Source of the DNA: a virus
Lineage: Duplodnaviria > Caudoviricetes
DNA length: 60,335 bases
Direction: 5' to 3' (one strand)
IMG/VR virus record: IMGVR_UViG_3300034418_003568
Location: 1 to 60,335 of that record
Below are positions 2,470 to 45,024 of the stretch, one piece after another (within the stretch, counting starts at the first letter, position 1; every line of letters begins with the position of its first letter). A model generated the notes under the pieces. It had not been told where the DNA came from. It did not search any database and saw only the letters and a program-made list of their open reading frames with translations. Both the position numbers and the translations under genes were made by a program.

Positions 2470-2943
2470 ATGGCTAACGTAATTGATGCAACAACCGGCG
2501 GCATAGTATCGACTGGCGATAGCACAGCAGCCCTTGATATCAAGACAGGCGGCACGACCGCTATTTCAATTGGTACGGGCCAATCGGTCACGATCAGCAA
2601 TGGACCTCTTTCGGATGCAGATGGCAACATTCGTGCGGTTCCGTCAGTCGGTGCAGCCAAGACCGCTGAATACACCTTGACCATTAGCGATGTCGGGAAC
2701 TATGTGACGGTGGGTTCCGGTGGCGGTATTACCCTTTTAGATGACGTATTCACAGCAGGCGATGTGGTTTCTGTCTTTAACGACACAACCGGCGATATCA
2801 CCATCACTTGCACCATCACGACCGCTTACTTAGCGGGAACCGATACGGATCAAGCGACTTTAACTCTAGCGACCCGTGGCATTGCGACGGTGTTATTCAC
2901 TTCTCCTTCGGCTTGCGTTGTAGCAGGGAATGTATCTGCATGA
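2470..2943 (+). CDS. Tail-associated structural protein
   Basis: 157-aa beta-rich ORF between two fibre genes. Confidence 0.6.
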   Translation: MANVIDATTGGIVSTGDSTAALDIKTGGTTAISIGTGQSVTISNGPLSDADGNIRAVPSVGAAKTAEYTLTISDVGNYVTVGSGGGITLLDDVFTAGDVVSVFNDTTGDITITCTITTAYLAGTDTDQATLTLATRGIATVLFTSPSACVVAGNVSA

Positions 2944-5900
2944 GTGGGATAATGATGCTCCTGCTCGCGGGGGCAATTGCTAAACAGCAATACATCGAAC
3001 GCAAAATCTTCACCTCCACGGGAAGCTGGGTTGCGCCTGCGGGTGTGACTCAAGTTGATTATCTTGTTGTCGCTGGGGGTGCAGGGGGTGGCCGAACTGG
3101 TGGCGGAGGTGGCGCAGGTGGGTTCCGTACAGGGACAGGTTTATCAGTTACTGCGGGTACCGATTACACCGTTACTGTTGGGGGTGGCGGAGCAGGAAGC
3201 AACACCGATTCTGTCGCAGGCTCATCTGGCGGTAATTCAGTATTTAGCACCATTACTTCAAATGGCGGTGGTGGAGGCGGGTCAAACCCAAATCCTTCTG
3301 CTGGCGCAAACGGTGGCTCTGGTGGCGGAGCAGGATGCACAAGTAGTGCAAACTCCGGTGGAACTGGCAACACGCCATCTACTAATCCGTCGCAAGGATC
3401 AAATGGTGGAGATAATGCTACTGGCGCACCCAATTATGGCGCGGGTGGAGGTGGCGGTGCATCGGCTGTAGGTGCAAACGGAACTAACACAACTGGCGGC
3501 AATGGCGGTGCGGGTACAGCCTCATCTATTTCTGGCGCATCTGCAACCTATGCAGGCGGCGGCGGCGGTGGAACTATTAGCGGAGGAACCGCAGGGTCGG
3601 GCGGTTCTGGTGGCGGGGGCGATGGTGGGACCGCTGGTGGAAATAATCCCGGCACGGCTGGAACTACAAATACGGGCGGTGGTGGTGGCGGCTCAAGTTA
3701 CAGCAGTTCGCCTGTCATCGGCGGCTCCGGCGGCTCCGGCGTTGTCATTCTGAAATACGCAGTTCCGGTTCAGACGGTCGTACAGACCTTCACTTCCTCT
3801 GGCACTTGGACTTGCCCCTCGAACGTGAGTGCGGTGGAGTACCTCGTTGTTGCGGGGGGTGGCGGTGGGGGATCATCTGGCATAAGTTTTAGTGTTGGCA
3901 TTTGTGGCGGCGGTGGCGGCGCAGGTGGCTTCCGTACCGGCACAGGGTTTAGCGTAACTGGCGGAACTGATTACACGATTACGGTTGGTGCTGGCGGTAG
4001 TTCTCAAACTGCTGGCAGTGATTCTGTATTCAGCACAATCACATCAACTGGAGGCGGAGGCGGTGGCGTACCGGGTGGCGCTCCGCAAACAGCAATTCCG
4101 CCTACTACTGGCGGCTCTGGCGGCGGCGGCGCTGGATCAAACCTCGCCAATACGCAAAACGGCGCAGCGGGAAACACGCCAAGCACTGCGCCAAGCCAAG
4201 GGAATGACGGCGGTAACGGGTTCGGAAGTGATGCCGACGCAGATGTGCAATGTTCTGGCGGTGGTGGTGGCGCTTCTGCTGTAGGCGCAAATGCCGCCTC
4301 TGCTGCTGGTGGGAACGGGGGCGGTGGTACTGCGTCAAGCATCAGTGGCTCTTCTGTAACCTACGCTGGCGGCGGTGGTGGTGGAAAAAGAACAACTAGC
4401 GGCTCACCGGGGACTGCTGGAACGGGTGGTTCTGGTGGCGGCGGAAATGGCGCTAAAGGTGCTGCGGCTGGGAGCGCCGGAACAGTAAACACGGGCGGCG
4501 GCGGCGGCGGCGCAGGCCAACAAGTGTCAACTACAAATGGAGGCACAGGCGGCTCCGGCATTGTCATTTTGAAATACACCCTTGGCACGGCTTCCATCCT
4601 GACATTCAAGTCCAGCCAAAACTTTGTGATGCCTGCTGGTGTGAGCAGTGTGGACTACCTCGTGGTGGGAGGTGGTGGTTCTGGCGGAGTTGGGGGAGGC
4701 GCTTCAAATGGTGGCGCAGGTGGCGGTGGAGCCGGGGGTATGCGTACCGGCACAGGTCTAACTGTTACTCCGGGTTCTAATTATACCGTTACTGTTGGTG
4801 GCGGGGGATCAAGCGGATCAAACGGTAGTGACTCCGTATTTAGCGCCATCACATCAACAGGCGGTGGCAAAGGCGGCAATTACAACAGTGGTAATGGTAG
4901 TAATGGTGGTTCTGGTGGCGGCGGTTCTGGTGGGTTTCCAAGTACTTTTGGAACTGGTGGAACTGGAAATACACCAAGTACATATCCATCCCAAGGCTCA
5001 AGCGGCGGAAATGGGGCTGCTGATAGCAATCCCCCCGGTGGCGGTGGTGGTGGTGCTTCTGCTGTTGGGTCGGCGGCAAGCGGGTCTACAGCCGGAAACG
5101 GCGGCGCTGGCACTGCATCATCTATTTCTGGCTCGTCCGTAACTTATGCTGGCGGTGGTGGGGGTGGTCGTTGGGTTGCCCCATATACCAATGGAACCGG
5201 AGGTGTGGGCGGCGGCGGGGATGGCGTAAGCGCAACTCCTGTAAATGCTGGAGCCGCTAACACAGGGGGAGGCGGTGGCGGTGGCACTTCTGCTGGCGGC
5301 GGCTCCGGCGGCTCCGGTATTGTCATCCTAAAGCTAAACTTTGGCGACTCCGAGCTTTACACCTTCACCTCCACGCAATCTTGGACAGCCCCAGCGGGTG
5401 CGGTGAGTGTGGACTACCTTGTCGTGGCTGGTGGTGGTGGCGGTGGAGGAACTAATCCTTCACAAGGTAGTGCTGGAGGCGGCGGCGCTGGTGGTTTCAG
5501 AACCGGAACCGGTCTTGCTATCACGGCTGGAACTTCCTATACCATCACGGTTGGTGCTGGCGGGACAAGTGGAACTGGTAGTGGTTCTCCTGGCAGTAGT
5601 TCTGTTTTTGATACGATTACCTCTGCTGGCGGTGGAGGTGGAGGTACTAACACCGCAGGCGGCGCAGGTGGATCGGGAGGTGGCGGTTCGGGAGTTGCAC
5701 CAGCTTCTGGTGGTGCAGGTAATACACCTTCAACTGTTCCTTCACAAGGAAATAACGGTGGAGATGGATCTCCTAGCGTACCTAATTATGGACAAGGTGG
5801 TGGTGGCGGAGCATCTGCCGTTGGAGCAAATGGAACATCCACGGCTGGTGGAAACGGTGGAGATGGAACTACATCAAATATTTCTGGAGGTTCTGTCACC

Positions 5901-6104
5901 TATGCTGGTGGTGGAGGTGGAGCTTCCTTTAATGGAGGAACAAATGGCTCTGGTGGTGCTGGTGGCGGCGGTGCCGCAGCAAGACCGGGCGTTGCAGGAA
6001 CTGCCAACACAGGCGGTGGTGGCGGTGCTGGGCAGTATCTATCTAGCGGAGCCTCCGGCGGCGCAGGCGGTTCAGGTATCGTAATTTTGAGGGTTAATTT
6101 TTAA
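2940..6104 (+). CDS. Glycine-rich tail fibre/adhesin-like protein, 4 Gly-rich domains
   Basis: ATG 2940 overlaps the previous stop (ATGA); four YLVV(A/G)GG...GSG(I/V)VIL(K/R) units. Confidence 0.75.
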   Translation: MSGIMMLLLAGAIAKQQYIERKIFTSTGSWVAPAGVTQVDYLVVAGGAGGGRTGGGGGAGGFRTGTGLSVTAGTDYTVTVGGGGAGSNTDSVAGSSGGNSVFSTITSNGGGGGGSNPNPSAGANGGSGGGAGCTSSANSGGTGNTPSTNPSQGSNGGDNATGAPNYGAGGGGGASAVGANGTNTTGGNGGAGTASSISGASATYAGGGGGGTISGGTAGSGGSGGGGDGGTAGGNNPGTAGTTNTGGGGGGSSYSSSPVIGGSGGSGVVILKYAVPVQTVVQTFTSSGTWTCPSNVSAVEYLVVAGGGGGGSSGISFSVGICGGGGGAGGFRTGTGFSVTGGTDYTITVGAGGSSQTAGSDSVFSTITSTGGGGGGVPGGAPQTAIPPTTGGSGGGGAGSNLANTQNGAAGNTPSTAPSQGNDGGNGFGSDADADVQCSGGGGGASAVGANAASAAGGNGGGGTASSISGSSVTYAGGGGGGKRTTSGSPGTAGTGGSGGGGNGAKGAAAGSAGTVNTGGGGGGAGQQVSTTNGGTGGSGIVILKYTLGTASILTFKSSQNFVMPAGVSSVDYLVVGGGGSGGVGGGASNGGAGGGGAGGMRTGTGLTVTPGSNYTVTVGGGGSSGSNGSDSVFSAITSTGGGKGGNYNSGNGSNGGSGGGGSGGFPSTFGTGGTGNTPSTYPSQGSSGGNGAADSNPPGGGGGGASAVGSAASGSTAGNGGAGTASSISGSSVTYAGGGGGGRWVAPYTNGTGGVGGGGDGVSATPVNAGAANTGGGGGGGTSAGGGSGGSGIVILKLNFGDSELYTFTSTQSWTAPAGAVSVDYLVVAGGGGGGGTNPSQGSAGGGGAGGFRTGTGLAITAGTSYTITVGAGGTSGTGSGSPGSSSVFDTITSAGGGGGGTNTAGGAGGSGGGGSGVAPASGGAGNTPSTVPSQGNNGGDGSPSVPNYGQGGGGGASAVGANGTSTAGGNGGDGTTSNISGGSVTYAGGGGGASFNGGTNGSGGAGGGGAAARPGVAGTANTGGGGGAGQYLSSGASGGAGGSGIVILRVNF

Positions 6105-22381: not shown

Positions 22382-25300
22382 ATGGCTATCAATCCGATTC
22401 TGTTTGAATTAGCGAAACAATTCGGTGGTAGCTTAGTTGATGAAGAAGACACCGCCGAAAAGGATCGCATTAAGGGCTTAGCAAGTCGCTTTGGCGGAGA
22501 GCCAGTCGCGACTGAAGATGCTGTGCCAGAAGAAGAGCCGGTTAGACCATCACCCTCCATTGGGGGAACCGGCGCATTAGGATTATTATCGGCTCCTTTT
22601 GGAAGACAAGCTGTTAAAGAAACAGCCATTGCTGCGTTCCAACCCACCACTTATGAATCAATTTTTCCAGTAATAGGGGAAAGCTTTGACATAAGTAAAG
22701 CTAAGTTTGGTTTAGCTGCAGTAGATGCTTTACCTAACTCAATTGATACCCCGCCTGCTGGGGTTCCCATGGAGGACATTGATCGTGCAGGTGGTGTTCG
22801 TCAGTATTACGAAACCTTTTACGGTGTTAAAAGCGACGAAGAGCTTAAAGAGTTAAAGCAGAAAACGATTGAAGCGATTGCTCGTCGCATTAAGGAAAGC
22901 GAAGAAACAATCTCTGAGATAACCCCAGAAGGATTGACTCCCGCTCAAGTAGGTATTCGTAGCGGCATACAAAGCGTTACGGAAATGGTTCCGGGCATAG
23001 CGGCATCTGTCATAACTAGAAGCCCCACCCCTGCATTAGCATCTGCTGCAGGCTTAACAGGTCTGGAGTCTTATGGCGAAGCCCGTCTTGCAGGGAAAGA
23101 TCCAACCACAGCGTTAGCTTATGGCGGCATTGATGCTGCTATCGAAACCGCTACAGAGCGGTTTGGGTTGGCACCTGTTTTAAAGATTTTAAAGAAAGCT
23201 AACATTGCAGATGTTGCAACAAAAGAAGAAGTTAAAGACGCATTAACAGAGTTTGCTAAAAGAGAAATCGGCTCAGAGCAAGCGGCAACAGCTCTCCAAA
23301 CTCTAAATGCTTTGGCATTTGGATTGGATGAAGAGCTTGCTAATGCGAAGTCGCCTGAAGAAGCTATCCGCATTCAAGGTGAACGTCAGTTCATAACGGC
23401 TGTTGCAACAGTCGTAGGCGGTGGCGCACAAGGTGGTGCCATAGCTGCTGCTAATAAGATCCAAGAAAATAATATTCGTAAGGAGATTGAGAAAAGAACT
23501 CGTGATCTTGAGGGAGTGGGTTCCATTCAAGAAAGGAAAGCAATTCAAGAGCTTAGAGATCAAGCATTAAACGATGCTCAAACAATCTCTGCCCCAGATC
23601 TTTCTGAAGTTTCTTTAGAAGAGGGGCAAACAGAACCAACCCCTTTACAGTTTGCAGATGCTTACGCTGACAGAATTTTTAATTCTGTAGGTCAGTACAT
23701 TCCTGCTGATGTCGAGTTTAGTGTTACTGAAAAAGAAGTCGATGGCGAAACCCAGTACACGGTAACGGACAAGGAAGGTCGCCAGTATGGGCAGAACTTA
23801 ACCGACAAAGATCAAGCGGATGCTTTGTCTTTAAGCTTAAACAACATAGGCCAATCTAGGGCGCAAGTCCTAGAAAGTCTCAATCCTCTTTATATTTCCC
23901 TGAAAGATACCTTAAAGGGGTATGGTTTAAATGATATTGGGTTGACACTGAATGATCGCATCTTCACAAGGCGTGGAGAAGCGTTAACTTCTGAGGGGTT
24001 GTTCGACCCTGTTGTTAGAGAAGTTTTTCTTGCAGTTGATGCTATTGATCCTGACGGAACCTTAGATCAAGGTCAGCGCCGTCAAGCACTGCGTGGTGTG
24101 TTGCGCCACGAGGTTGTTCATGCCCTGCGCTATCTTGATTTGTGGAAAAAATCCGAATGGAAGAATTTAGAAAATGCAGTATCTCGCATAAAGAAAACAG
24201 GAACCGATAAGACTTACCTTGATATTGCTAAGGAAAGATACGGCGATCAAACCCCTGTCATTCAGGTAGAGGAAGCTGTTGCAGATCTGATTCGCGATGT
24301 TGCAGATCAAAGAGCATCTGTAGCAGGCAAGCCACGTTCTCTTTCTGAAAGAGCGGTTCAGTTTTTTGATCGCGCTAAGAACGCATTAACCGGTGCTGGA
24401 TTTCAGACTTACGAAGACATTGTAAACCGCTTTGAAAGCGGTGAGATCGGTGCAAGACAGCGCGGTAAAATAAGGACATTCAGAGCGAGTGAAGAATTTG
24501 CTGCTGAAAAAGGATACGTTCCTGAGCGTCTTCAGAGGATCTTGAAATCACCTGAAGGGCGAAATCAATTTAGAGAAGACACGCTACAGAATTTAATTAG
24601 CAGTTTACCAAGTCAAGCCTTGGCTGCGCCTGCAATGAACAGTTTGCGGAACGCTGGCATTCGCGAGTCGCGTTCTACCATTGAGCAGGTTCCCCCGAAA
24701 ATTAAAATAGATGATCAAGAACTTCCGACAAGGGATAGTGAAGGTCGTTTAATTTACTCCGGCTATGAAGGACCGGAAGTATTTAACATTCAAACCGCTC
24801 CCACTGAGCAGGGACTCAAGAACTTCTGGCGCTGGTTTGGTGATAGCAAAGCGGTCAGTCGAGATGGTCGCCCGTCTGTGTACTACCATGGAACCGCTGC
24901 TGATATCACTGCGTTCCGTCCCAAGCAAGCAGGTTCTGTGTTCATTACCAAAAGCCCTAGCTTTGCCAATGAATTTGCAGGGATGTCTGAGGACTACATG
25001 GTCGGGAACTTCACCGACTTCATGTCTGACCAGCAGGTACTGGATGTCCTGAATGAAACTTTAAAAACTCCAAGTTCATTCCCTGTTAGATCTAAAGAAT
25101 TACCACCTACTAAAGCTAAACCAGATGAAAAGGGTGTTAAAGAACCTAGCAAGGTCAACTTAGGAACTTATGAAAATGTTTTGAAGTTACGAGATTCAGT
25201 AGAAAAGAGTGTGCTATCTGGTAAGCCAATTAGCAACAAAGTTATTTCAGATTTAAAATATATAGCCAAAGAAGGCAGAAATATTCGCCTTGGAAAGAAC

Positions 25301-28300
25301 ATTCAAGACCGTATGCCTTCTGCTGCGAACCTTGTTCCGGTGTATGTTAAGGCAGATAATCCTTTTGATTATCAAGATAAAGATCAGGTTTATAAGGTTT
25401 TAGAAAAAGCAGATGAGTTCTCCCCTACCCCTATTGGCCCTATTGAAGAGGAAGCTCTTTTAATTGGAGACTGGGAGACCATTGAATCATCGGCTATCTT
25501 AGAGGCTATTAAATCTCTTGGATTTGACTCCATGTATGTGGAGGAAGCAGGCCAAAAGAATCTGGCAGTGTTTGATCCGGGTCAGGTGAAGTCTGCCATT
25601 GGGAACAACGGTGAGTTTAGTCCGCTGACCCCCAGCATTCGTGAGTCGCGTCAGCCTACCTACAACATAGTTAACACCCGTACCGGGAAAGTGGTCGGTC
25701 AGGCTAATACCATCAATGGCGCTCGTCGTTCTGTAGATCGTCGTGATAATCAGTACGGTGCATATGTACACACGATTCAGGTTGTTGATGAAGAAGGGGA
25801 TAGAGAACAAAGGGCCAAGGCTAGAGAAATGCTTGGCTTGCCTGCATTGATGGGTGAGCCTGTCGGAGAAGGAATTGGACAGCCAAGTGTCGAGGCTGGT
25901 CGCGCTGTACCTGAAGCAGAAGCAGTAGTACCTAAAGCCAGAGAGTCTCGTAAAAAACCTGAAGACACTCCTCCGGCATCAAAGCCGATAGGCAATCCAG
26001 TTCCGGGTCCATCGACCAATGTAGAGAACACTGCTGATGCAGAGGCTTTGAATAACGGTCGCCCAGTTAATTCAATGGGTATTGCGACTGGACCTCAAGT
26101 CACAACGACAGATCCTGAAACCTTAGAGGTTGATACTTCTGAGGTAAGACTCCGTAAAGAAGGGGTGGGCAGGCTTGTAAGAACTCTTGAGTTTGTTGAG
26201 TCAGCACCTGATCGTCTTCGCCGTGGTATTGGCCTTGAGGATCTGGCAAAGAATGTTGAAGATTACTATGACACTCTTGCTGCACGGCTTGGCTTTGTTA
26301 ACAACATCATTCGCAATGCGGTAGCTCAGATACCGTTGAAGGATAGGTATTCCTTTGACTCTAACATTCCGGGCTTTGGTCCTGTTTTAATTCAAGGTAA
26401 AGCCCTAAGAGAGTTTGAAAGCTTTATAAGAGCAAGAGAAAACGGCAGAACTGATGAAGCCCAGTTCATCAGAAGCCAGGTGTCTGATAGCGGGAGAGCC
26501 TTAATCGAGGCTTGGGAACAGCTTGCTACTGAGACAGGTCGTATAAACCTAGAAATTCGCACACCATACGGCAAACCTTTAAGGGTTTACGATCCAAATT
26601 ACGTCACGGGAACTTATGGAGAAAAGGCAGGGGGATGGAGACCAATTAAAGTTGCCCCTAACTTTTTCCCAAGAACACTTCGCAAGGAAGTGCTTGCTGT
26701 CATGAACAATCCGGACTCTGATCCGGCATTGTTTAATCAGTTAATGAGATCATTGGTAGAGGCTGGCAAAGCAGATGACATTGATGCTGCTCGTAAGTGG
26801 TTGCTTCGTAGTTACTTTTCAGAAGAAATTAGAAGCGACTACTTTGCTGGCGTTGAAAGAGCAAGATCTGAAAAGCTCCCAGAGATTTTCTACGACTACT
26901 CTTGGGATGCGGTAACTCGCTACTTAAATAAGTGGGCAAAGAGAACTTCGCAAGTTCAGTACTTCGGTCAAGAGCTTGGGCAGATGCCAAACCAAAGAGA
27001 TTACTTTGGTAGAATCTTGGCGAGGTCTGATATCAATGAAGATACTAAAGCTTACATTTTAAGCATTAGAGATAGGATTTATGAAGTAGACAACACGGGT
27101 GACTATGGGTTTATCCTTAATTGGTTAAACTCAATCGTCACCGGAGGTATGCTTGGCAATCCAATTAGTTCTTCTTTGAACTTGATTGGTGGAACCGTTC
27201 TTAACATTGCTGAATTTGGAGTGGGCAGAGTTGGTAAAGCGTTTGTTGAGTATGCAAAAACTCCTATCAAGCCAGTCAGAAGCTTTGTAACAGAACTCAA
27301 TGCGAATGAGTTTGGCATAGATGCTATTGCCAAAGCATGGAAAGAATTAAAAATTGAATGGGCTAAAGTTCAAGAGGAAGGGACTACTCTTGGAATTTTA
27401 AATAACGATGTTATTAACTTGTTGAATGACATACCGTCTGAAGCAAACAAGTACTTTGAAGATGAAAGAACTCTTTCTGTTGGCCCTATTTCTTTAAGAA
27501 CAGCCCCTATTTCTAGGGGTCTGGCTAAGTCTGCGAATATTCTTTTGACTGTTGGCGGCTATCAGAAAGCAGAAAACATTGTTAGGTACACGGCATTACT
27601 GGCAGCTAAGGGATGGCTTAATGATTCTCTTAAAGCCATGAACACTAACCCATCATCAAAGCAAGCAGTAAGGTTTAAGGACTGGATTCAAAGAGAAAAC
27701 TTAAATCTTGAAAAGCTTTTGCTAGAAAATGGTATCGGAGAGGAAACTGCTCGTTTCTTTAGAAGAGCAGTTAACGTACCACAAGGGTCTTATAAGATCG
27801 ACATGACTCCTGTGTTTGTGGATACCCCAGTTGGAAGGTTTTTGTTTAAGTATCAGAAATTTGCCACGCAAGTTAATAGATATTTTTATAGGCATTACAT
27901 AAAACCATTTAAGGATAAACCAGACGCAACAAATGCTCTCAGGATTCTGTCATTTTTAGGATGGTCATTGGTTGGTGGAGAGCTTGTGCTTCTGATCAGG
28001 GAGGCTTTTGGGTATGGCAATCCAAGCGCGGATTTTGAAGAAATAACAAAAGCTTTAAGGGAAAACGAAGATCTTGCTAGAGCTTTGGCGTTGTCTTGGA
28101 GCCGAGCTTTGCAAGACCTTTTGGCTGTCGGGGTCTTCGGTTTCTTCGGAAACTATGCCCAGCTTTTTAATGACTGGCAGGATCAAATGCGAGTTAAGAA
28201 TCCCATGTCCCCTCCGGGCGCGGCATCAATTGGGAATCTTGCCGATCTTATTAATAAGTTTTTGGGACAAAAAACATTAACCTTATCTGATCTTGATGAC

Positions 28301-28825
28301 TACGCTCAGGCTCAGGTTTCTTTATATAGAGCTGGTAAAAGAATAACTTTAGCTACCTTGGATAGCCTTGGCTCTGATGCTGAAGCAGTCAAAAAGTTTG
28401 TAACTCAAAAGAACCTGAGAGAGGTGAGAGAGTTTACAGATCGCTATAGCGAAGAGATGGACATTGAATACAAAAGAAGGATTGCACCCGGTGCAGTCAT
28501 TCCAACCCCGCAAACCCCATTCAACAGACGTATTGTCGATGCGCTATATCGTGGCAACTCTGCGGAAGCCAAGGCAATATTATTTGAGGCTCAAGCGGGT
28601 AAAACCCGCGAGGAAAGAGATCGTATAAGACGTAGCGCAATGTCTGCTGTAAGGAACGGGCAACCTATCAGGATTGCTGGAACCGGTGCTTCAGATGAAG
28701 ACAGAAGAGATTTCATGCGATGGGCGCAGAGGAACTTATCTGCGGATGGGTATGCAATGACTTACCAGATGGACTTTACTTACAGAAGCGCAGCGAGAAG
28801 AGCGGACTTAGGTTTTAAAGATTGA
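22382..28825 (+). CDS. Large polyvalent/ejection protein with HExxH zincin-like and ADP-ribosyltransferase-like (ART-PolyVal) domains
   Basis: LRHEVVHALR...EEAVAD; F..WFGDSK.V..DG.P..YYHGT...VF.P.QVKSAIGNNGEF. Confidence 0.75.
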   Translation: MAINPILFELAKQFGGSLVDEEDTAEKDRIKGLASRFGGEPVATEDAVPEEEPVRPSPSIGGTGALGLLSAPFGRQAVKETAIAAFQPTTYESIFPVIGESFDISKAKFGLAAVDALPNSIDTPPAGVPMEDIDRAGGVRQYYETFYGVKSDEELKELKQKTIEAIARRIKESEETISEITPEGLTPAQVGIRSGIQSVTEMVPGIAASVITRSPTPALASAAGLTGLESYGEARLAGKDPTTALAYGGIDAAIETATERFGLAPVLKILKKANIADVATKEEVKDALTEFAKREIGSEQAATALQTLNALAFGLDEELANAKSPEEAIRIQGERQFITAVATVVGGGAQGGAIAAANKIQENNIRKEIEKRTRDLEGVGSIQERKAIQELRDQALNDAQTISAPDLSEVSLEEGQTEPTPLQFADAYADRIFNSVGQYIPADVEFSVTEKEVDGETQYTVTDKEGRQYGQNLTDKDQADALSLSLNNIGQSRAQVLESLNPLYISLKDTLKGYGLNDIGLTLNDRIFTRRGEALTSEGLFDPVVREVFLAVDAIDPDGTLDQGQRRQALRGVLRHEVVHALRYLDLWKKSEWKNLENAVSRIKKTGTDKTYLDIAKERYGDQTPVIQVEEAVADLIRDVADQRASVAGKPRSLSERAVQFFDRAKNALTGAGFQTYEDIVNRFESGEIGARQRGKIRTFRASEEFAAEKGYVPERLQRILKSPEGRNQFREDTLQNLISSLPSQALAAPAMNSLRNAGIRESRSTIEQVPPKIKIDDQELPTRDSEGRLIYSGYEGPEVFNIQTAPTEQGLKNFWRWFGDSKAVSRDGRPSVYYHGTAADITAFRPKQAGSVFITKSPSFANEFAGMSEDYMVGNFTDFMSDQQVLDVLNETLKTPSSFPVRSKELPPTKAKPDEKGVKEPSKVNLGTYENVLKLRDSVEKSVLSGKPISNKVISDLKYIAKEGRNIRLGKNIQDRMPSAANLVPVYVKADNPFDYQDKDQVYKVLEKADEFSPTPIGPIEEEALLIGDWETIESSAILEAIKSLGFDSMYVEEAGQKNLAVFDPGQVKSAIGNNGEFSPLTPSIRESRQPTYNIVNTRTGKVVGQANTINGARRSVDRRDNQYGAYVHTIQVVDEEGDREQRAKAREMLGLPALMGEPVGEGIGQPSVEAGRAVPEAEAVVPKARESRKKPEDTPPASKPIGNPVPGPSTNVENTADAEALNNGRPVNSMGIATGPQVTTTDPETLEVDTSEVRLRKEGVGRLVRTLEFVESAPDRLRRGIGLEDLAKNVEDYYDTLAARLGFVNNIIRNAVAQIPLKDRYSFDSNIPGFGPVLIQGKALREFESFIRARENGRTDEAQFIRSQVSDSGRALIEAWEQLATETGRINLEIRTPYGKPLRVYDPNYVTGTYGEKAGGWRPIKVAPNFFPRTLRKEVLAVMNNPDSDPALFNQLMRSLVEAGKADDIDAARKWLLRSYFSEEIRSDYFAGVERARSEKLPEIFYDYSWDAVTRYLNKWAKRTSQVQYFGQELGQMPNQRDYFGRILARSDINEDTKAYILSIRDRIYEVDNTGDYGFILNWLNSIVTGGMLGNPISSSLNLIGGTVLNIAEFGVGRVGKAFVEYAKTPIKPVRSFVTELNANEFGIDAIAKAWKELKIEWAKVQEEGTTLGILNNDVINLLNDIPSEANKYFEDERTLSVGPISLRTAPISRGLAKSANILLTVGGYQKAENIVRYTALLAAKGWLNDSLKAMNTNPSSKQAVRFKDWIQRENLNLEKLLLENGIGEETARFFRRAVNVPQGSYKIDMTPVFVDTPVGRFLFKYQKFATQVNRYFYRHYIKPFKDKPDATNALRILSFLGWSLVGGELVLLIREAFGYGNPSADFEEITKALRENEDLARALALSWSRALQDLLAVGVFGFFGNYAQLFNDWQDQMRVKNPMSPPGAASIGNLADLINKFLGQKTLTLSDLDDYAQAQVSLYRAGKRITLATLDSLGSDAEAVKKFVTQKNLREVREFTDRYSEEMDIEYKRRIAPGAVIPTPQTPFNRRIVDALYRGNSAEAKAILFEAQAGKTREERDRIRRSAMSAVRNGQPIRIAGTGASDEDRRDFMRWAQRNLSADGYAMTYQMDFTYRSAARRADLGFKD

Positions 28826-38626: not shown

Positions 38627-38667
38627 AAACCCCCGACACCCCGAAGGATGCCGAGGGTGTCAGGGTT
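38621..38667 (-). terminator. Intrinsic terminator ending the early operon
   Basis: CCCTGACACCCTCG...CGGGGTGTCGGGGG followed by TTTTTATTT on the minus strand. Confidence 0.7.
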
Positions 38668-42224: not shown

Positions 42225-42254
42225 AGTATAGATGATAACTTGTGTACTTGTCAA
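42225..42254 (-). promoter_or_regulatory. Internal early sigma70 promoter, copy A
   Basis: TTGACA-agtacacaagttatcatc(18)-TATACT. Confidence 0.75.
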
Positions 42255-42529
42255 GCGAACGCTTCCTCTTCACCGAGTCTCTCGACAACCTCGTAGACGA
42301 TGCGCTCGCACTCATGGCGAGTGGGACGCTTGCTCCAACGTTGCTCATCACCGAAGCCGAGTGACCAGACCCAACCTCCGTAGACTTGCACCGCGCAACC
42401 CCTGTAGTTCAGCACCCTGTCACTGATTTGTTGTTGATAATCCATTTCGGTTTCTTTGGATTCGTGTCCAAGATGTCCCCATCGACGGTCATCATTGATG
42501 ATGTCTTGTTTTAAATTTTCATCGTTCAT
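42251..42529 (-). CDS. Hypothetical early protein
   Basis: GAGGTGCAAACA-ATG just downstream of hammerhead 1. Confidence 0.6.
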   Translation of the reverse strand: MNDENLKQDIINDDRRWGHLGHESKETEMDYQQQISDRVLNYRGCAVQVYGGWVWSLGFGDEQRWSKRPTRHECERIVYEVVERLGEEEAFA

Positions 42530-42561
42530 TGTTTGCACCTCTGGTTGATAATTTAGTTGTC

Positions 42562-42617
42562 TGATGGTCTCATCAGGCGTAGCACCACTACGCGACCCGC
42601 CGAAGCGGGTTTCGACC
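42562..42617 (-). ncRNA. Hammerhead ribozyme, type II (copy 1)
   Basis: GGTC GAAA CCCGC TTCG GCGGG TC^GCGTAG TGGTG CTACGC CTGATGA GACC ATCA: complete core, three stems, GUC site (cut 42594/42593). Confidence 0.93.
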
Positions 42618-42619
42618 TG

Positions 42620-42892
42620 TTAGATCACCCCAAGGCGGCGAAGACGTTCGTTGAATTTTTCAGCAATCGAATTGGTGATCACGCAATCAGGATCGAATGC
42701 GTCACCCGTGCGATATCTAACATCGTCAAGCATGGCAAGCCATGCAGCACGATCACCCGCGAAATACCAACGTCTGGCATTCGGTCTCGCGGTCTTCAGC
42801 CCGTAGACTTCCAGTACGTCGCCAGAATCCAGTGATAACTGGCGAACGATTACTGATGGAACGGATATTTCAAATTGCTGTTCCTGTAGCAC
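42620..42892 (-). CDS. Hypothetical early protein
   Basis: AGGAG RBS, GTG start; stop abuts hammerhead 1. Confidence 0.6.
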   Translation of the reverse strand: MLQEQQFEISVPSVIVRQLSLDSGDVLEVYGLKTARPNARRWYFAGDRAAWLAMLDDVRYRTGDAFDPDCVITNSIAEKFNERLRRLGVI

Positions 42893-42918
42893 AGTGATTC
42901 TCCTATCGGGTTTTGATC

Positions 42919-43083
42919 TTAGTCAACGTAATAATCGTCATCCCATAAGCTGACGCGTTGTTCTGCGCGTTTACGTACGAGACTGGGATCAAGCCATTCA
43001 TCGAATGGCGGAAATTCAAAGCCACAGGCTCGCGCTTCCGCACGTTCCTCGCAGTACTGCTGATATTTCAATTCGTCGGTCAT
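42919..43083 (-). CDS. Small early protein (54 aa, not in ORF track)
   Basis: MTDELKYQQYCEERAEARACGFEFPPFDEWL...; GAGGA RBS; ATGA coupling. Confidence 0.6.
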   Translation of the reverse strand: MTDELKYQQYCEERAEARACGFEFPPFDEWLDPSLVRKRAEQRVSLWDDDYYVD

Positions 43084-43304
43084 GCTGCGTCCTCTTCAGC
43101 ACCGAACACTAGCTCCCACTCGTCTTTCAGTTCCTCGTCAGAGCGGGTTGCAAATCCAATAAATCCATCACGCAAGTAGGCTTTCAGGACTGCATGATCG
43201 TTGTCTACAAAGTCAAGATCCCTGTCCTCATTCCACAAATAGCTGATCGATTCTTTGATCAACGCTTCGATAACTTGTTCTCTCGTTAAATCTTTGTATT
43301 GCAT
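43080..43304 (-). CDS. Hypothetical acidic early protein
   Basis: TAGGTGCAACT-ATG downstream of hammerhead 2. Confidence 0.65.
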   Translation of the reverse strand: MQYKDLTREQVIEALIKESISYLWNEDRDLDFVDNDHAVLKAYLRDGFIGFATRSDEELKDEWELVFGAEEDAA

Positions 43305-43330
43305 AGTTGCACCTATGTGGGTTGGTTGTC

Positions 43331-43386
43331 TGATGGTCTCATCAGTACGGGCATCACCCGTAGACCCGCCGGAGCGGGTTTCGACC
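43331..43386 (-). ncRNA. Hammerhead ribozyme, type II (copy 2)
   Basis: GGTC GAAA CCCGC TCCG GCGGG TC^TACGGG TGATG CCCGTA CTGATGA GACC ATCA (cut 43363/43362). Confidence 0.93.
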
Positions 43387-43388
43387 TG

Positions 43389-44264
43389 TTAGGCGGCTTC
43401 CTTAAGTTCCTCAGACTCACGACCGAGCAACAGTTCGGATGCCTTGCGAGCAAGCGATGCAGCTTTAAAGATCGCCCGTTTGTCATTCTTGAGAACGCTC
43501 AGCCAGTTGTTTAAATACTGGGCGTGATCGACTCGCGGGGAGTTGGTGATACCGAGTTCCGCGCACAAAAACGCCGCACCTAGCTCCGCGACCAGTTCCT
43601 CGAACGCATAGTCTGAGTTACCGAAACTTGCTAGCTTGTGACGATTCAAGCGGGTAGCATGACCCGTCCAATGCACCAACTCATGCGAGAGGGTGCTGTA
43701 GTAGCACTCAGTCGCTGTCGAATGCTCAGTGCCGCGAAACAGTGACTTGATCGGCATATGCACAAAGTCACCCGCAGGTGAGTAAAAAGCGCGGGATTCA
43801 GGCGATTCGCGGATATCCGCACCTGTCCCTTTTGCCCATGCTTCGACGGATTCCATATCCATGACTTCGACCGGATCGTCTGATGGGTTGTCGAAGCTGC
43901 GAGCGTAGTCACCCTCGACCTGTTCCGAGTTGAACACGGTCGAATATCTGATCATTGGGAACACCGAGACGTTACCCTCTGAATCCTCTTTTTTCAGCAT
44001 CTTGAAATAGGTCACCATGTGACCTTTCGCACCCTTTTTGACGGTGCAATTCTTTGATGCCCATTGCTGATAACCCGCCCATGCGTTGGACTGAAAGGGC
44101 GTGAAATTCAACATGAGGATATTGACTCCGCGATAGTTCCGCTGAGTCACTGCGTTGAATGGGCGTAGGCTTGTCTTGCCTTTATTGAACGGGTTCACCC
44201 AGTCCGCACCGGATTCGGTCATTTGCTTGATCACTTGATCTGTCACGGTTTGATAAATATCCAT
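43389..44264 (-). CDS. ardC: Antirestriction protein ArdC (ssDNA-binding plus zincin-like domain)
   Basis: DIYQ.VTD..I, YRGVN, VFN.EQV, AFYSP..D...MP, HELVHWTGH..RL.R, YA.EELVAELGAAFL, YL..WL.VLK.DKRAIF.AA. Confidence 0.92.
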   Translation of the reverse strand: MDIYQTVTDQVIKQMTESGADWVNPFNKGKTSLRPFNAVTQRNYRGVNILMLNFTPFQSNAWAGYQQWASKNCTVKKGAKGHMVTYFKMLKKEDSEGNVSVFPMIRYSTVFNSEQVEGDYARSFDNPSDDPVEVMDMESVEAWAKGTGADIRESPESRAFYSPAGDFVHMPIKSLFRGTEHSTATECYYSTLSHELVHWTGHATRLNRHKLASFGNSDYAFEELVAELGAAFLCAELGITNSPRVDHAQYLNNWLSVLKNDKRAIFKAASLARKASELLLGRESEELKEAA

Positions 44265-44289
44265 AGTTGCACCTATGTGGGTTGATGGC

Positions 44290-44344
44290 TGACGGTCTCG
44301 TCAGGCAGCGCGTCACGCTGCGACGGGCAAAGCCCGTTTCGACC
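44290..44344 (-). ncRNA. Hammerhead ribozyme, type II (copy 3)
   Basis: GGTC GAAA CGGGC TTT GCCCG TC^GCAGCG TGACG CGCTGC CTGACGA GACC GTCA (cut 44322/44321). Confidence 0.92.
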
Positions 44345-44616
44345 TAGTGGGATGCGAGCCACCGAGTACAGGCGGCTGCTACAAATGGGCGTCTTACCCA
44401 TAAGCGCGGGTGTTTTCGCACCACAAATTGCTCGCCAATCAGGTATCTACCCGAGTACCTGAGCGGCTCGCAACAGTCCCATTTGCCTGTTAGCTCGCGC
44501 ATGGCTGATGTTGCTGCAATCCGCGCAGCGACGGCGTTATCGTCGTACAGCGGCGATAGCTTGCAGGCGATCCGATACAGTCGGCGAATTGCCGAGAATT
44601 GCTGACGCTTGCTCAT
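44344..44616 (-). CDS. Hypothetical basic early protein
   Basis: TGATG coupling to the upstream ORF; its TAG stop overlaps stem II of hammerhead 3. Confidence 0.55.
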   Translation of the reverse strand: MSKRQQFSAIRRLYRIACKLSPLYDDNAVAARIAATSAMRELTGKWDCCEPLRYSGRYLIGEQFVVRKHPRLWVRRPFVAAACTRWLASH

Positions 44617-44726
44617 CACTTGCCCCCCTTTTTGACTGGAACCCACACTGGAACCGCATCGACCGGATGCAGCATCCAGTAACCCTTCTTGCTTGATTTG
44701 ATCAATTGCTTGAATGACTTGCTCAT
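44616..44726 (-). CDS. First early gene, 36-aa basic peptide (not in ORF track)
   Basis: MSKSFKQLIKSSKKGYWMLHPVDAVPVWVPVKKGGK; GAGGTGCAAGTC-ATG. Confidence 0.55.
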   Translation of the reverse strand: MSKSFKQLIKSSKKGYWMLHPVDAVPVWVPVKKGGK

Positions 44727-44949: not shown

Positions 44950-44996
44950 TGTTTTTTCCCTAGCGGGGCGGCCTGTCTGGGTGGCCGATGGGTGCC

Positions 44997-45024
44997 ATCA
45001 TACGGATATCTGCTAAGCTGTCAA
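44997..45024 (-). promoter_or_regulatory. Main early sigma70 promoter
   Basis: TTGACA-N16-TATGAT with AT-rich upstream sequence. Confidence 0.75.

Follow-up and report, generated by a model that had tools for sequence, protein, structure and literature searches.

Three type II hammerhead ribozymes bracketing ardC in a complete phage genome may divide its leftward transcript

As late as 2026, the role of DNA-encoded hammerhead ribozymes in phages could be described as elusive (PMC13725137), and the same question is raised by a virus genome (Duplodnaviria; Caudoviricetes) in the IMG/VR record IMGVR_UViG_3300034418_003568. This complete record, which has direct terminal repeats and was analysed over its full 60,335 bp (the window), contains three type II hammerheads on the minus (coding) strand at 44344-44288, 43386-43329 and 42617-42560. 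They lie in a leftward block made up of the anti-restriction gene ardC and small open reading frames (ORFs) without family matches, and, as in the clustered arrangements of prophages, the three copies stand within 1.8 kb and flank ardC and a block of three ORFs. Are these motifs ribozymes, and do they cut the transcript on which they lie? Judging by their sequence and by analogy with characterised members of the class, we consider it likely that, with no protein involved, they divide the polycistronic transcript of the phage that carries them into units whose ends are structured.

Each copy follows the order GGUC - GAAA - stem III hairpin - GUC (cut) - stem I hairpin - CUGAYGA - GACC - RUCAG, with a stem II of 4 bp, a stem III of 6 bp, a stem I of 6 bp plus U.G and a 5-nt loop I. 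A loop caps each of stems I and III and stem II is open, which is the circular permutation of type II. Every copy contains CUGAYGA, GAAA and U-C17, in keeping with the core (C3 U4 G5 A6 N7 G8 A9 / G12 A13 A14 / A15.1-U16.1 / H17) defined in the Methods of Perreault et al. (2011; PMC3088659), and the core-adjacent pairs are standard (G10.1-C11.1, A15.1-U16.1 and, at 1.1-2.1, G-C, U-A and G-C). The elements of the three copies, including a second hairpin discussed further below, are as follows.

44288..44344, minus strand: hammerhead 1, with GGUC 44344-44341, GAAA 44340-44337, stem III to U44323 and C17 at 44322
Minus strand: 3' half of hammerhead 1, with stem I 44321-44305, CUGACGA 44304-44298, GACC 44297-44294 and tail GUCAGC 44293-44288
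44304-44289, minus strand: predicted alternative core-sequestering hairpin of hammerhead 1
43329..43386, minus strand: hammerhead 2, with GGUC 43386-43383, C17 at 43363 and stem I 43362-43346
Minus strand: 3' half of hammerhead 2, with CUGAUGA 43345-43339, GACC 43338-43335 and tail AUCAG 43334-43330
43345-43330, minus strand: predicted alternative hairpin of hammerhead 2
42560..42617, minus strand: hammerhead 3, with GGUC 42617-42614, C17 at 42594 and stem I 42593-42577
Minus strand: 3' half of hammerhead 3, with CUGAUGA 42576-42570, GACC 42569-42566 and tail AUCAG 42565-42561
42576-42561, minus strand: predicted alternative hairpin of hammerhead 3

The predicted 3' products begin at 44321, 43362 and 42593, directly after C44322, C43363 and C42594. 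The first-pass annotation of this DNA had listed the same three 5' ends, which the C17 positions bear out, and had described three sense-strand type II hammerheads with intact cores and fully paired stems, a description reproduced with a position ruler and a script. Its further statement that stem I is different in all three copies and stem III in one was upheld by comparison of the copies, with the stem III of the 44344 copy differing from the other two, and the topology, cleavage sites and predicted end products that it gave can be read straight off the sequence.

In the window, matches to the bare core pattern do not exceed the chance level (seven versus 5.2 expected from shuffles), while a detector requiring all three helices finds three matches versus a mean of 0.0 in 20 shuffles; it is thus the stems that discriminate. 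A covariance model (R1), built from 51 instances in other viral contigs and none from the window, scored the 43386, 42617 and 44344 copies at 74.8, 69.7 and 63.3 bits, respectively (E 9e-19 to 1.5e-15), and with a next-best window score of 11.5 bits it finds exactly three copies. No other ribozyme class was detected in the whole window with Rfam at E up to 1. Among cultured phage records, blastn with a 68-nt copy gave no match at E up to 1, and the 3-kb region gave only two weak matches, both under ardC.

The three copies belong to a larger family, which was collected with a pattern that has the core and the GGUC/GACC stem II as its sole fixed elements and makes no demand on the pairing of stems I and III; the covariation seen in it is that of stem I, as stem II is fixed by the search pattern. 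At least 120 loci in the viral collection match. Among the matches listed, 144 of 147 unique instances, the three of the window included, have well-formed stems (stem III at least 3 bp, stem I at least 5 bp). Stem I is 17 nt long in 138 of these listed instances; pairs 1-6 form in 137-138 of them, each position shows four to six pair types, and 131 different stem I sequences occur. Stem I covariation is seen both in this family-wide pairing and in a compensatory change between the window and its closest relative, L122; in a separate alignment that was prefiltered for full pairing, the 100% pairing holds by construction. Loop I of the subfamily is a conserved U-N-A-N-G pentaloop among the matches listed, with G-C as its closing pair (U.G in 118 of 138), and the tails are for the most part rich in A and C. 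In the published type II consensus, loop I forms an activating pseudoknot of at least 4 bp with the bases that follow stem II on its 3' side (PMC3088659); another tertiary contact presumably replaces it in the GGUC/GACC subfamily.

Arrays are a recurrent feature of the family, with two to seven copies, always on one strand and at a median spacing of 348 nt, in 20 of 118 loci among the matches listed. The viral contig L121 carries seven subfamily hammerheads on one strand within ~4 kb (~8.1-12.9 kb), such that a ribozyme stands between nearly every gene pair of the operon. In cellular genomes, 80 of 128 matches to the family pattern are well formed and distributed over many phyla, and the other 48 are chance or coding matches. 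The pattern also matches a conserved, apparently coding stretch that lacks stems I and III in several Brevibacterium genomes (L304, L306, L308, L317, L319, L320), a recurrent false positive for pattern-based ribozyme scans.

The hammerheads are in close register with the genes on either side of them, which are listed here.

44344..44646, minus strand: ORF preceding hammerhead 1, starting at GTG 44646 (100 aa) or at ATG 44616 (90 aa)
43389..44264, minus strand: ardC, 291 aa, between hammerheads 1 and 2 (Pfam ArdcN 4.8e-26, MPTase-PolyVal 6.8e-47)
42620..43304, minus strand: three small ORFs between hammerheads 2 and 3, 43304-43080 (74 aa), 43083-42919 (54 aa) and 42892-42620 (90 aa)
42251..42529, minus strand: first ORF past hammerhead 3, 92 aa from ATG 42529

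The ardC product also matches the anti-restriction protein family PHROG 7245 (E 4.8e-75). Family searches returned no match for the ORF at 44344..44646 (Pfam, PHROG), for the three ORFs 43304-43080, 43083-42919 and 42892-42620, or for the ORF at 42251..42529.

The stop codon TAG 44346-44344 overlaps the GGUC of hammerhead 1 by 1 nt, and the stops TAA 43391-43389 and TAA 42622-42620 each lie 2 nt before the GGUC of hammerheads 2 and 3. The next ATGs (44264, 43304 and 42529) follow 29, 30 and 36 nt past GACC, or 24, 25 and 31 nt past the tail. These measurements (-1 or +2 nt from the stop, and 24, 25 and 31 nt from the tail) agree with the earlier claim that each ribozyme starts within 2 nt of, or overlapping, a stop codon and ends ~25-32 nt before the next ATG. 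The register extends to the family: among the matches listed, 104 of 149 instances have the stop codon of an upstream ORF between -1 and +3 nt of GGUC, versus 185 of 7450 random positions (2.5%), and a start codon lies 10-40 nt past GACC in 113 of 133.

A ribosome-binding site of the AGGUGCAA type precedes the ATG after each ribozyme. Furthermore, AGGTGCAA occurs 13 times in the window versus 2.2 expected, with 11 of the occurrences on the minus strand between 40684 and 44737, just upstream of start codons. As it recurs along the operon, including before a gene without a ribozyme, it is the general ribosome-binding site of the operon, which is unusually uniform in this respect. A leader sequence shared after copies 1 and 2 was considered as a part of the ribozyme and rejected, since AGGTGCAA also precedes the ribozyme-free gene.

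The limits of the putative operon are suggested by two further features.

44997..45024, minus strand: sigma-70-like promoter site, TTGACA, 16 nt, TATGAT, 11/12 (consensus match only)
38629..38658, minus strand: terminator-like hairpin of 13 pairs followed by a T run

The promoter-like site at 45024-44997, ~670 nt upstream of hammerhead 1, is likely to mark the start of the leftward operon and the hairpin at 38658-38629 its likely end. Further leftward sigma-70-like sites are present at 42254 and 41197 (consensus matches only). The promoter-like site is followed by a leader of ~270 nt (minus strand 44992-44727) before the first small ORF (ATG near 44724), which has ~75% identity with L122 and contains a long nested hairpin at ~44795-44755; a structured RNA in this leader was not supported (folding energy z = -1.18, and Rfam without a match).

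Starting from the motif, its stems, its family membership and its positions, we infer the following course for cleavage in vivo and for the stabilisation and insulation that may result from it. Each intergenic motif would fold as RNA polymerase passes and would cut itself after C17 (44322, 43363 and 42594) with no protein needed, and the products, being joined solely by the 4-bp stem II, would then separate. The upstream RNA would retain its stop codon and have its 3' end 22-23 nt beyond it, in the hairpin of stem III, which is rich in G+C and would bear a 2',3'-cyclic phosphate, and the downstream RNA would begin with a 5'-OH already paired within stem I and carry its AGGUGCAA site and start codon ~30 nt past the ribozyme. 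With a start near 44990, the transcript would thus be divided into a first piece of ~669 nt with two small genes, a second piece of 959 nt with ardC alone (44321-43363), a third piece of 769 nt with three small genes (43362-42594) and a fourth piece with the remainder of the operon transcript. The structured ends of these units should resist host end-dependent RNases, and translation of each unit should be insulated from its upstream context.

In phage T7, early mRNA is cut between cistrons by host RNase III, the resulting hairpin ends stabilise the products, and the early products include an anti-restriction protein. The locus would resemble T7 in that an early polycistronic transcript with an anti-restriction gene is cut between cistrons, but a host protein enzyme does the cutting in T7, whereas the RNA of the window would cut itself and leave a 5'-OH and a cyclic phosphate. 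Insulators of the RiboJ type combine a hammerhead with an additional 3' hairpin before the ribosome-binding site, remove the upstream context and standardise the 5' end. Each copy in the window likewise places a hammerhead and a 3' hairpin just before the ribosome-binding site, but RiboJ is engineered and derived from type III, whereas the natural tail hairpin of the window overlaps the catalytic core.

Processing of clustered prophage transcripts into gene-length mRNAs has been proposed by Perreault et al. (2011; PMC3088659). According to these authors, it is common in prophages for a single gene or a short block of genes to be flanked by several hammerheads, three tandem arrangements cleave during in vitro transcription, a triple flanking ardA of A. 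tumefaciens cleaves in E. coli, and ardA follows a hammerhead in three Legionella strains. The A. tumefaciens locus resembles that of the window in having three type II hammerheads on one transcript and an anti-restriction gene flanked by them, and differs in that the window has ardC in place of ardA and represents a free phage, recovered as a complete genome from a metagenome. In D. vulgaris, cyPhyRNA-seq has shown in vivo cleavage for three type II hammerheads that lie in phage-like contexts (PMC8782182); here the likeness extends to phage-like and hypothetical neighbouring genes and to two ribozymes lying close together, with both fragments captured in vivo, while the loci are chromosomal and the portion of the report available to us mentions no anti-restriction gene.

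In a literature search on phage hammerheads and anti-restriction genes, Perreault et al. (2011) was the only paper found, and in a search on ArdC and ribozymes the papers listed were all on human or LINE-1 ribozymes, as judged by title. The arrangement has already been described for other prophages, and the window is a clean new example; since clustered hammerheads around an anti-restriction gene were thus in print (PMC3088659), the novelty is much lower than the first-pass annotation implied. Its proposal of a protein-free processing of the early transcript is supported and matches that of Perreault et al. (2011); the label 'early' is tentative and draws on the sigma-70-like site (45024-44997), the series of small ORFs and the presence of ardC.

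Several observations weigh against self-processing of this transcript. Rfam gave no match in the window at gathering score, so that its model reaches the cut-off for none of the copies and the cmscan check for Hammerhead_II proposed with the original claim fails at default settings. In E-value mode, RF02276 (Hammerhead_II) scored the 43386 copy at 31.6 and the 42617 copy at 25.9 bits versus a cut-off of 37, and the 44344 copy was not recovered at E up to 10. Promoter-like sites are not enriched in number (five found versus 8.6 in shuffles). Of 43 viral loci that code for ArdC relatives, just 2 have a type II hammerhead within ~2.5 kb, and the relative L123 (74% identical) has none. When the RUCAG tail is included, a fold of three hairpins that buries C3-G8 is favoured over the active fold by 2.4-3.4 kcal/mol (nearest-neighbour energies). 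In addition, self-cleavage by the three copies is carried over from tested relatives of the class, and the suggested roles in stabilisation and insulation are read from topology alone.

We read the Rfam shortfall as a limit of the model, which has a 2-bp stem II and a specific tail, and not as evidence against membership of the hammerhead class. The copies share with RF02276 the core, the circular permutation and the loops on stems I and III, and a loop I-tail pairing of 4-5 bp is possible in them, but their stem II has 4 bp (GGUC/GACC) versus 2 bp in the model.

The rarity of hammerheads next to ardC bears on a second question, namely whether ribozymes and anti-restriction genes are linked. 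Such a link was rejected: the 133 downstream ORFs among the matches listed comprise one ArdA, one DUF932 and no ArdC, and match 16 Pfam families in total, of which the commonest, DUF7249, has five members. PHROG likewise gave a single anti-restriction match for the genes next to family members among the matches listed, the other matches being scattered. In L122, the closest relative (ArdC 91% identity), three hammerheads are present, two of them bracketing ardC. With hammerheads in 2 of 43 ArdC loci but three in L122, the ribozymes belong to the phage lineage and not to ardC.

The preference for the three-hairpin fold has its origin in the tail, which was overlooked in the first-pass annotation and by which cleavage may be partial or timed. 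Core C3-G8 (CUGACG, CUGAUG and CUGAUG) is perfectly complementary to the final C of GACC plus the five bases past it (GUCAG, AUCAG and AUCAG). When the tail is omitted, as it would be before its transcription, each of the three copies has its energy minimum in the hammerhead fold, in favour of self-processing; with it, the core is complementary to the tail and the minimum-energy fold therefore consists of three plain hairpins with the core buried. As this fold is the more stable one, cleavage could be slow or partial.

The tail is a minority feature of the family, and its sequence follows that of the core. NTCAG stands directly past GACC in 17 of 147 unique instances among the matches listed, versus at most three at any other offset, and against N7 these 17 tails form 16 Watson-Crick pairs and one G.U. 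In a second scan, in which both N were free, 36 instances in hammerhead context showed N7-tail combinations of U-A (28), C-G (7) and U-G (1) and no mismatch, and the 68 matches lying outside such a context were distributed among 14 combinations. The N7-tail association has a Fisher p of 3e-5 in a stricter subset of 23 that includes the three copies of the window and is not corrected for kinship. N7 is otherwise free, and its covariation with the tail thus points to selection on the core-tail hairpin and, from sequence, to a selected inactive or post-cleavage fold.

In the window, loop I (UGACG, UGAUG and UGGUG) is also complementary to the tail over 5, 5 and 5 positions, the last with one G.U, such that 4 bp are possible between loop I and tail, or 5 when the last C of GACC is used, with the same tail able to pair with the core. 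Between the 44344 and the 43386 copies, loop I, N7 and tail have changed together. A general loop I-tail pseudoknot in the subfamily was not supported, as only seven instances among the matches listed have at least 5 bp versus 3.9 +/- 2.1 in shuffled pairings, and a Watson-Crick loop I-tail run of at least 4 was found in 0 of 20 other tailed members. The tail is also labile, since the L122 ortholog of the 44344 copy is without a tail and, in the copy that follows ardC in L122, it amounts to no more than AUCA.

These properties suggest a modified account, in which the hammerheads are timed or toggled ribozymes made bistable by the RUCAG tail, with cleavage confined to a co-transcriptional window or remaining partial, and which we hold to be credible although short of probable. 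The pseudoknot of 4-5 bp between tail and loop I would hold the active fold, and pairing of the tail with the core (CUGAYG-AGAC-CRUCAG) would shut it off; after cutting, the hairpin would lock the 3' product against religation and add a second 5' hairpin to the mRNA, and polycistronic and processed RNAs would both be present. It draws on the alternative fold being the minimum in all three copies, on the position and N7 pairing of the tail in both scans and on the joint change of loop, N7 and tail in the 44344 copy. Set against this are the absence of loop I-tail complementarity from the other tailed members, the lack of enrichment of such pairing in the family and the loss of the tail in L122; moreover, the energies ignore tertiary contacts, and the three-way match is one change within one phage.

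That the tail acts as a toggle or a product trap can therefore be suggested only tentatively, and the specific form of a built-in toggle, in which loop I pairing activates, C3-G8 pairing shuts off and then traps the product, and cleavage is co-transcriptional only, is a more doubtful proposition. By a similarly speculative extension, the cut mRNA would keep a double-hairpin 5' end, with loop I copying the core in this phage so that one tail serves both pairings. Were it true, early gene expression in phages would have a natural timer in the form of a ribozyme. No report of a core-sequestering tail in type II hammerheads was found in the literature search, most subscription journals and supplements being outside its coverage. 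As far as the searches reach, the covarying core-sequestering tail and the failure of the Rfam model to detect an abundant phage subfamily go beyond published accounts.

Comparison with L122 also bears on an account in which the hammerheads are selfish or neutral cassette boundaries that travel with small ORFs and persist via recombination and gene conversion with little benefit for expression, which we regard as improbable. L122 contains an additional unit of a 76-aa ORF and a hammerhead (L122:1787-2068), with nothing at the corresponding window junction (44748/44741), which suggests that gene-plus-ribozyme cassettes are gained and lost as units. Its hammerhead after ardC is a mosaic that has the flanks and stem III of the 43386 copy and the stem I of the 42617 copy and resembles a brief tract of gene conversion; the region is thus shaped by cassettes and by such tracts. 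The genes beside family members are diverse and mostly nameless, as Perreault et al. (2011; PMC3088659) likewise noted, and their Pfam and PHROG matches, among those listed, are scattered. However, the cores are intact in all six copies of the window and L122, and stems are kept by compensatory change, as in the L122 ortholog of the 44344 copy, where a C-G to U-A change preserves stem I. The tight family-wide register with stop and start codons argues for selection on a function at the RNA level, and a cassette account explains the spread of the motif, not the conservation of its catalytic residues.

That the motifs are non-catalytic intercistronic hairpins, acting as stabilisers or host RNase targets and matching the consensus by accident, would fit the chance-level count of the bare core, the unmet Rfam cut-off and the lowest-energy predicted fold of three plain hairpins, but is very improbable, as the core positions conform in all three copies while the stems vary freely, the same holds in about 140 relatives among the matches listed, and class members in like contexts cleave (PMC3088659 and PMC8782182).

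Beyond the locus, the genes rightward from 45187 encode both terminase subunits, small and large, as well as the portal. Two neighbouring ORFs on the plus strand, 742-2451 (569 aa) and 2808-6104 (1098 aa), both match phrog_2295, a family whose function is unknown, have weaker matches to a tail fibre assembly family and have the appearance of paralogues with a tail or fibre role. At 22382-28825 on the plus strand lies the phage's largest gene (2147 aa), for which a single short PHROG match was obtained (E 2e-10, 40 residues).

Self-processing of the leftward transcript remains the reading that we prefer, and although the locus does not settle the role of hammerheads in phages, it offers a compact and clean test case, with a complete genome, three ribozymes in the first 2.5 kb of the operon and ardC as a predicted single-gene mRNA. 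Its value is increased by the close relative L122, which differs by one gene-plus-ribozyme cassette. Furthermore, the curated Rfam model misses a very common phage subfamily at its cut-off, and automatic annotation therefore under-counts the hammerheads of phages.

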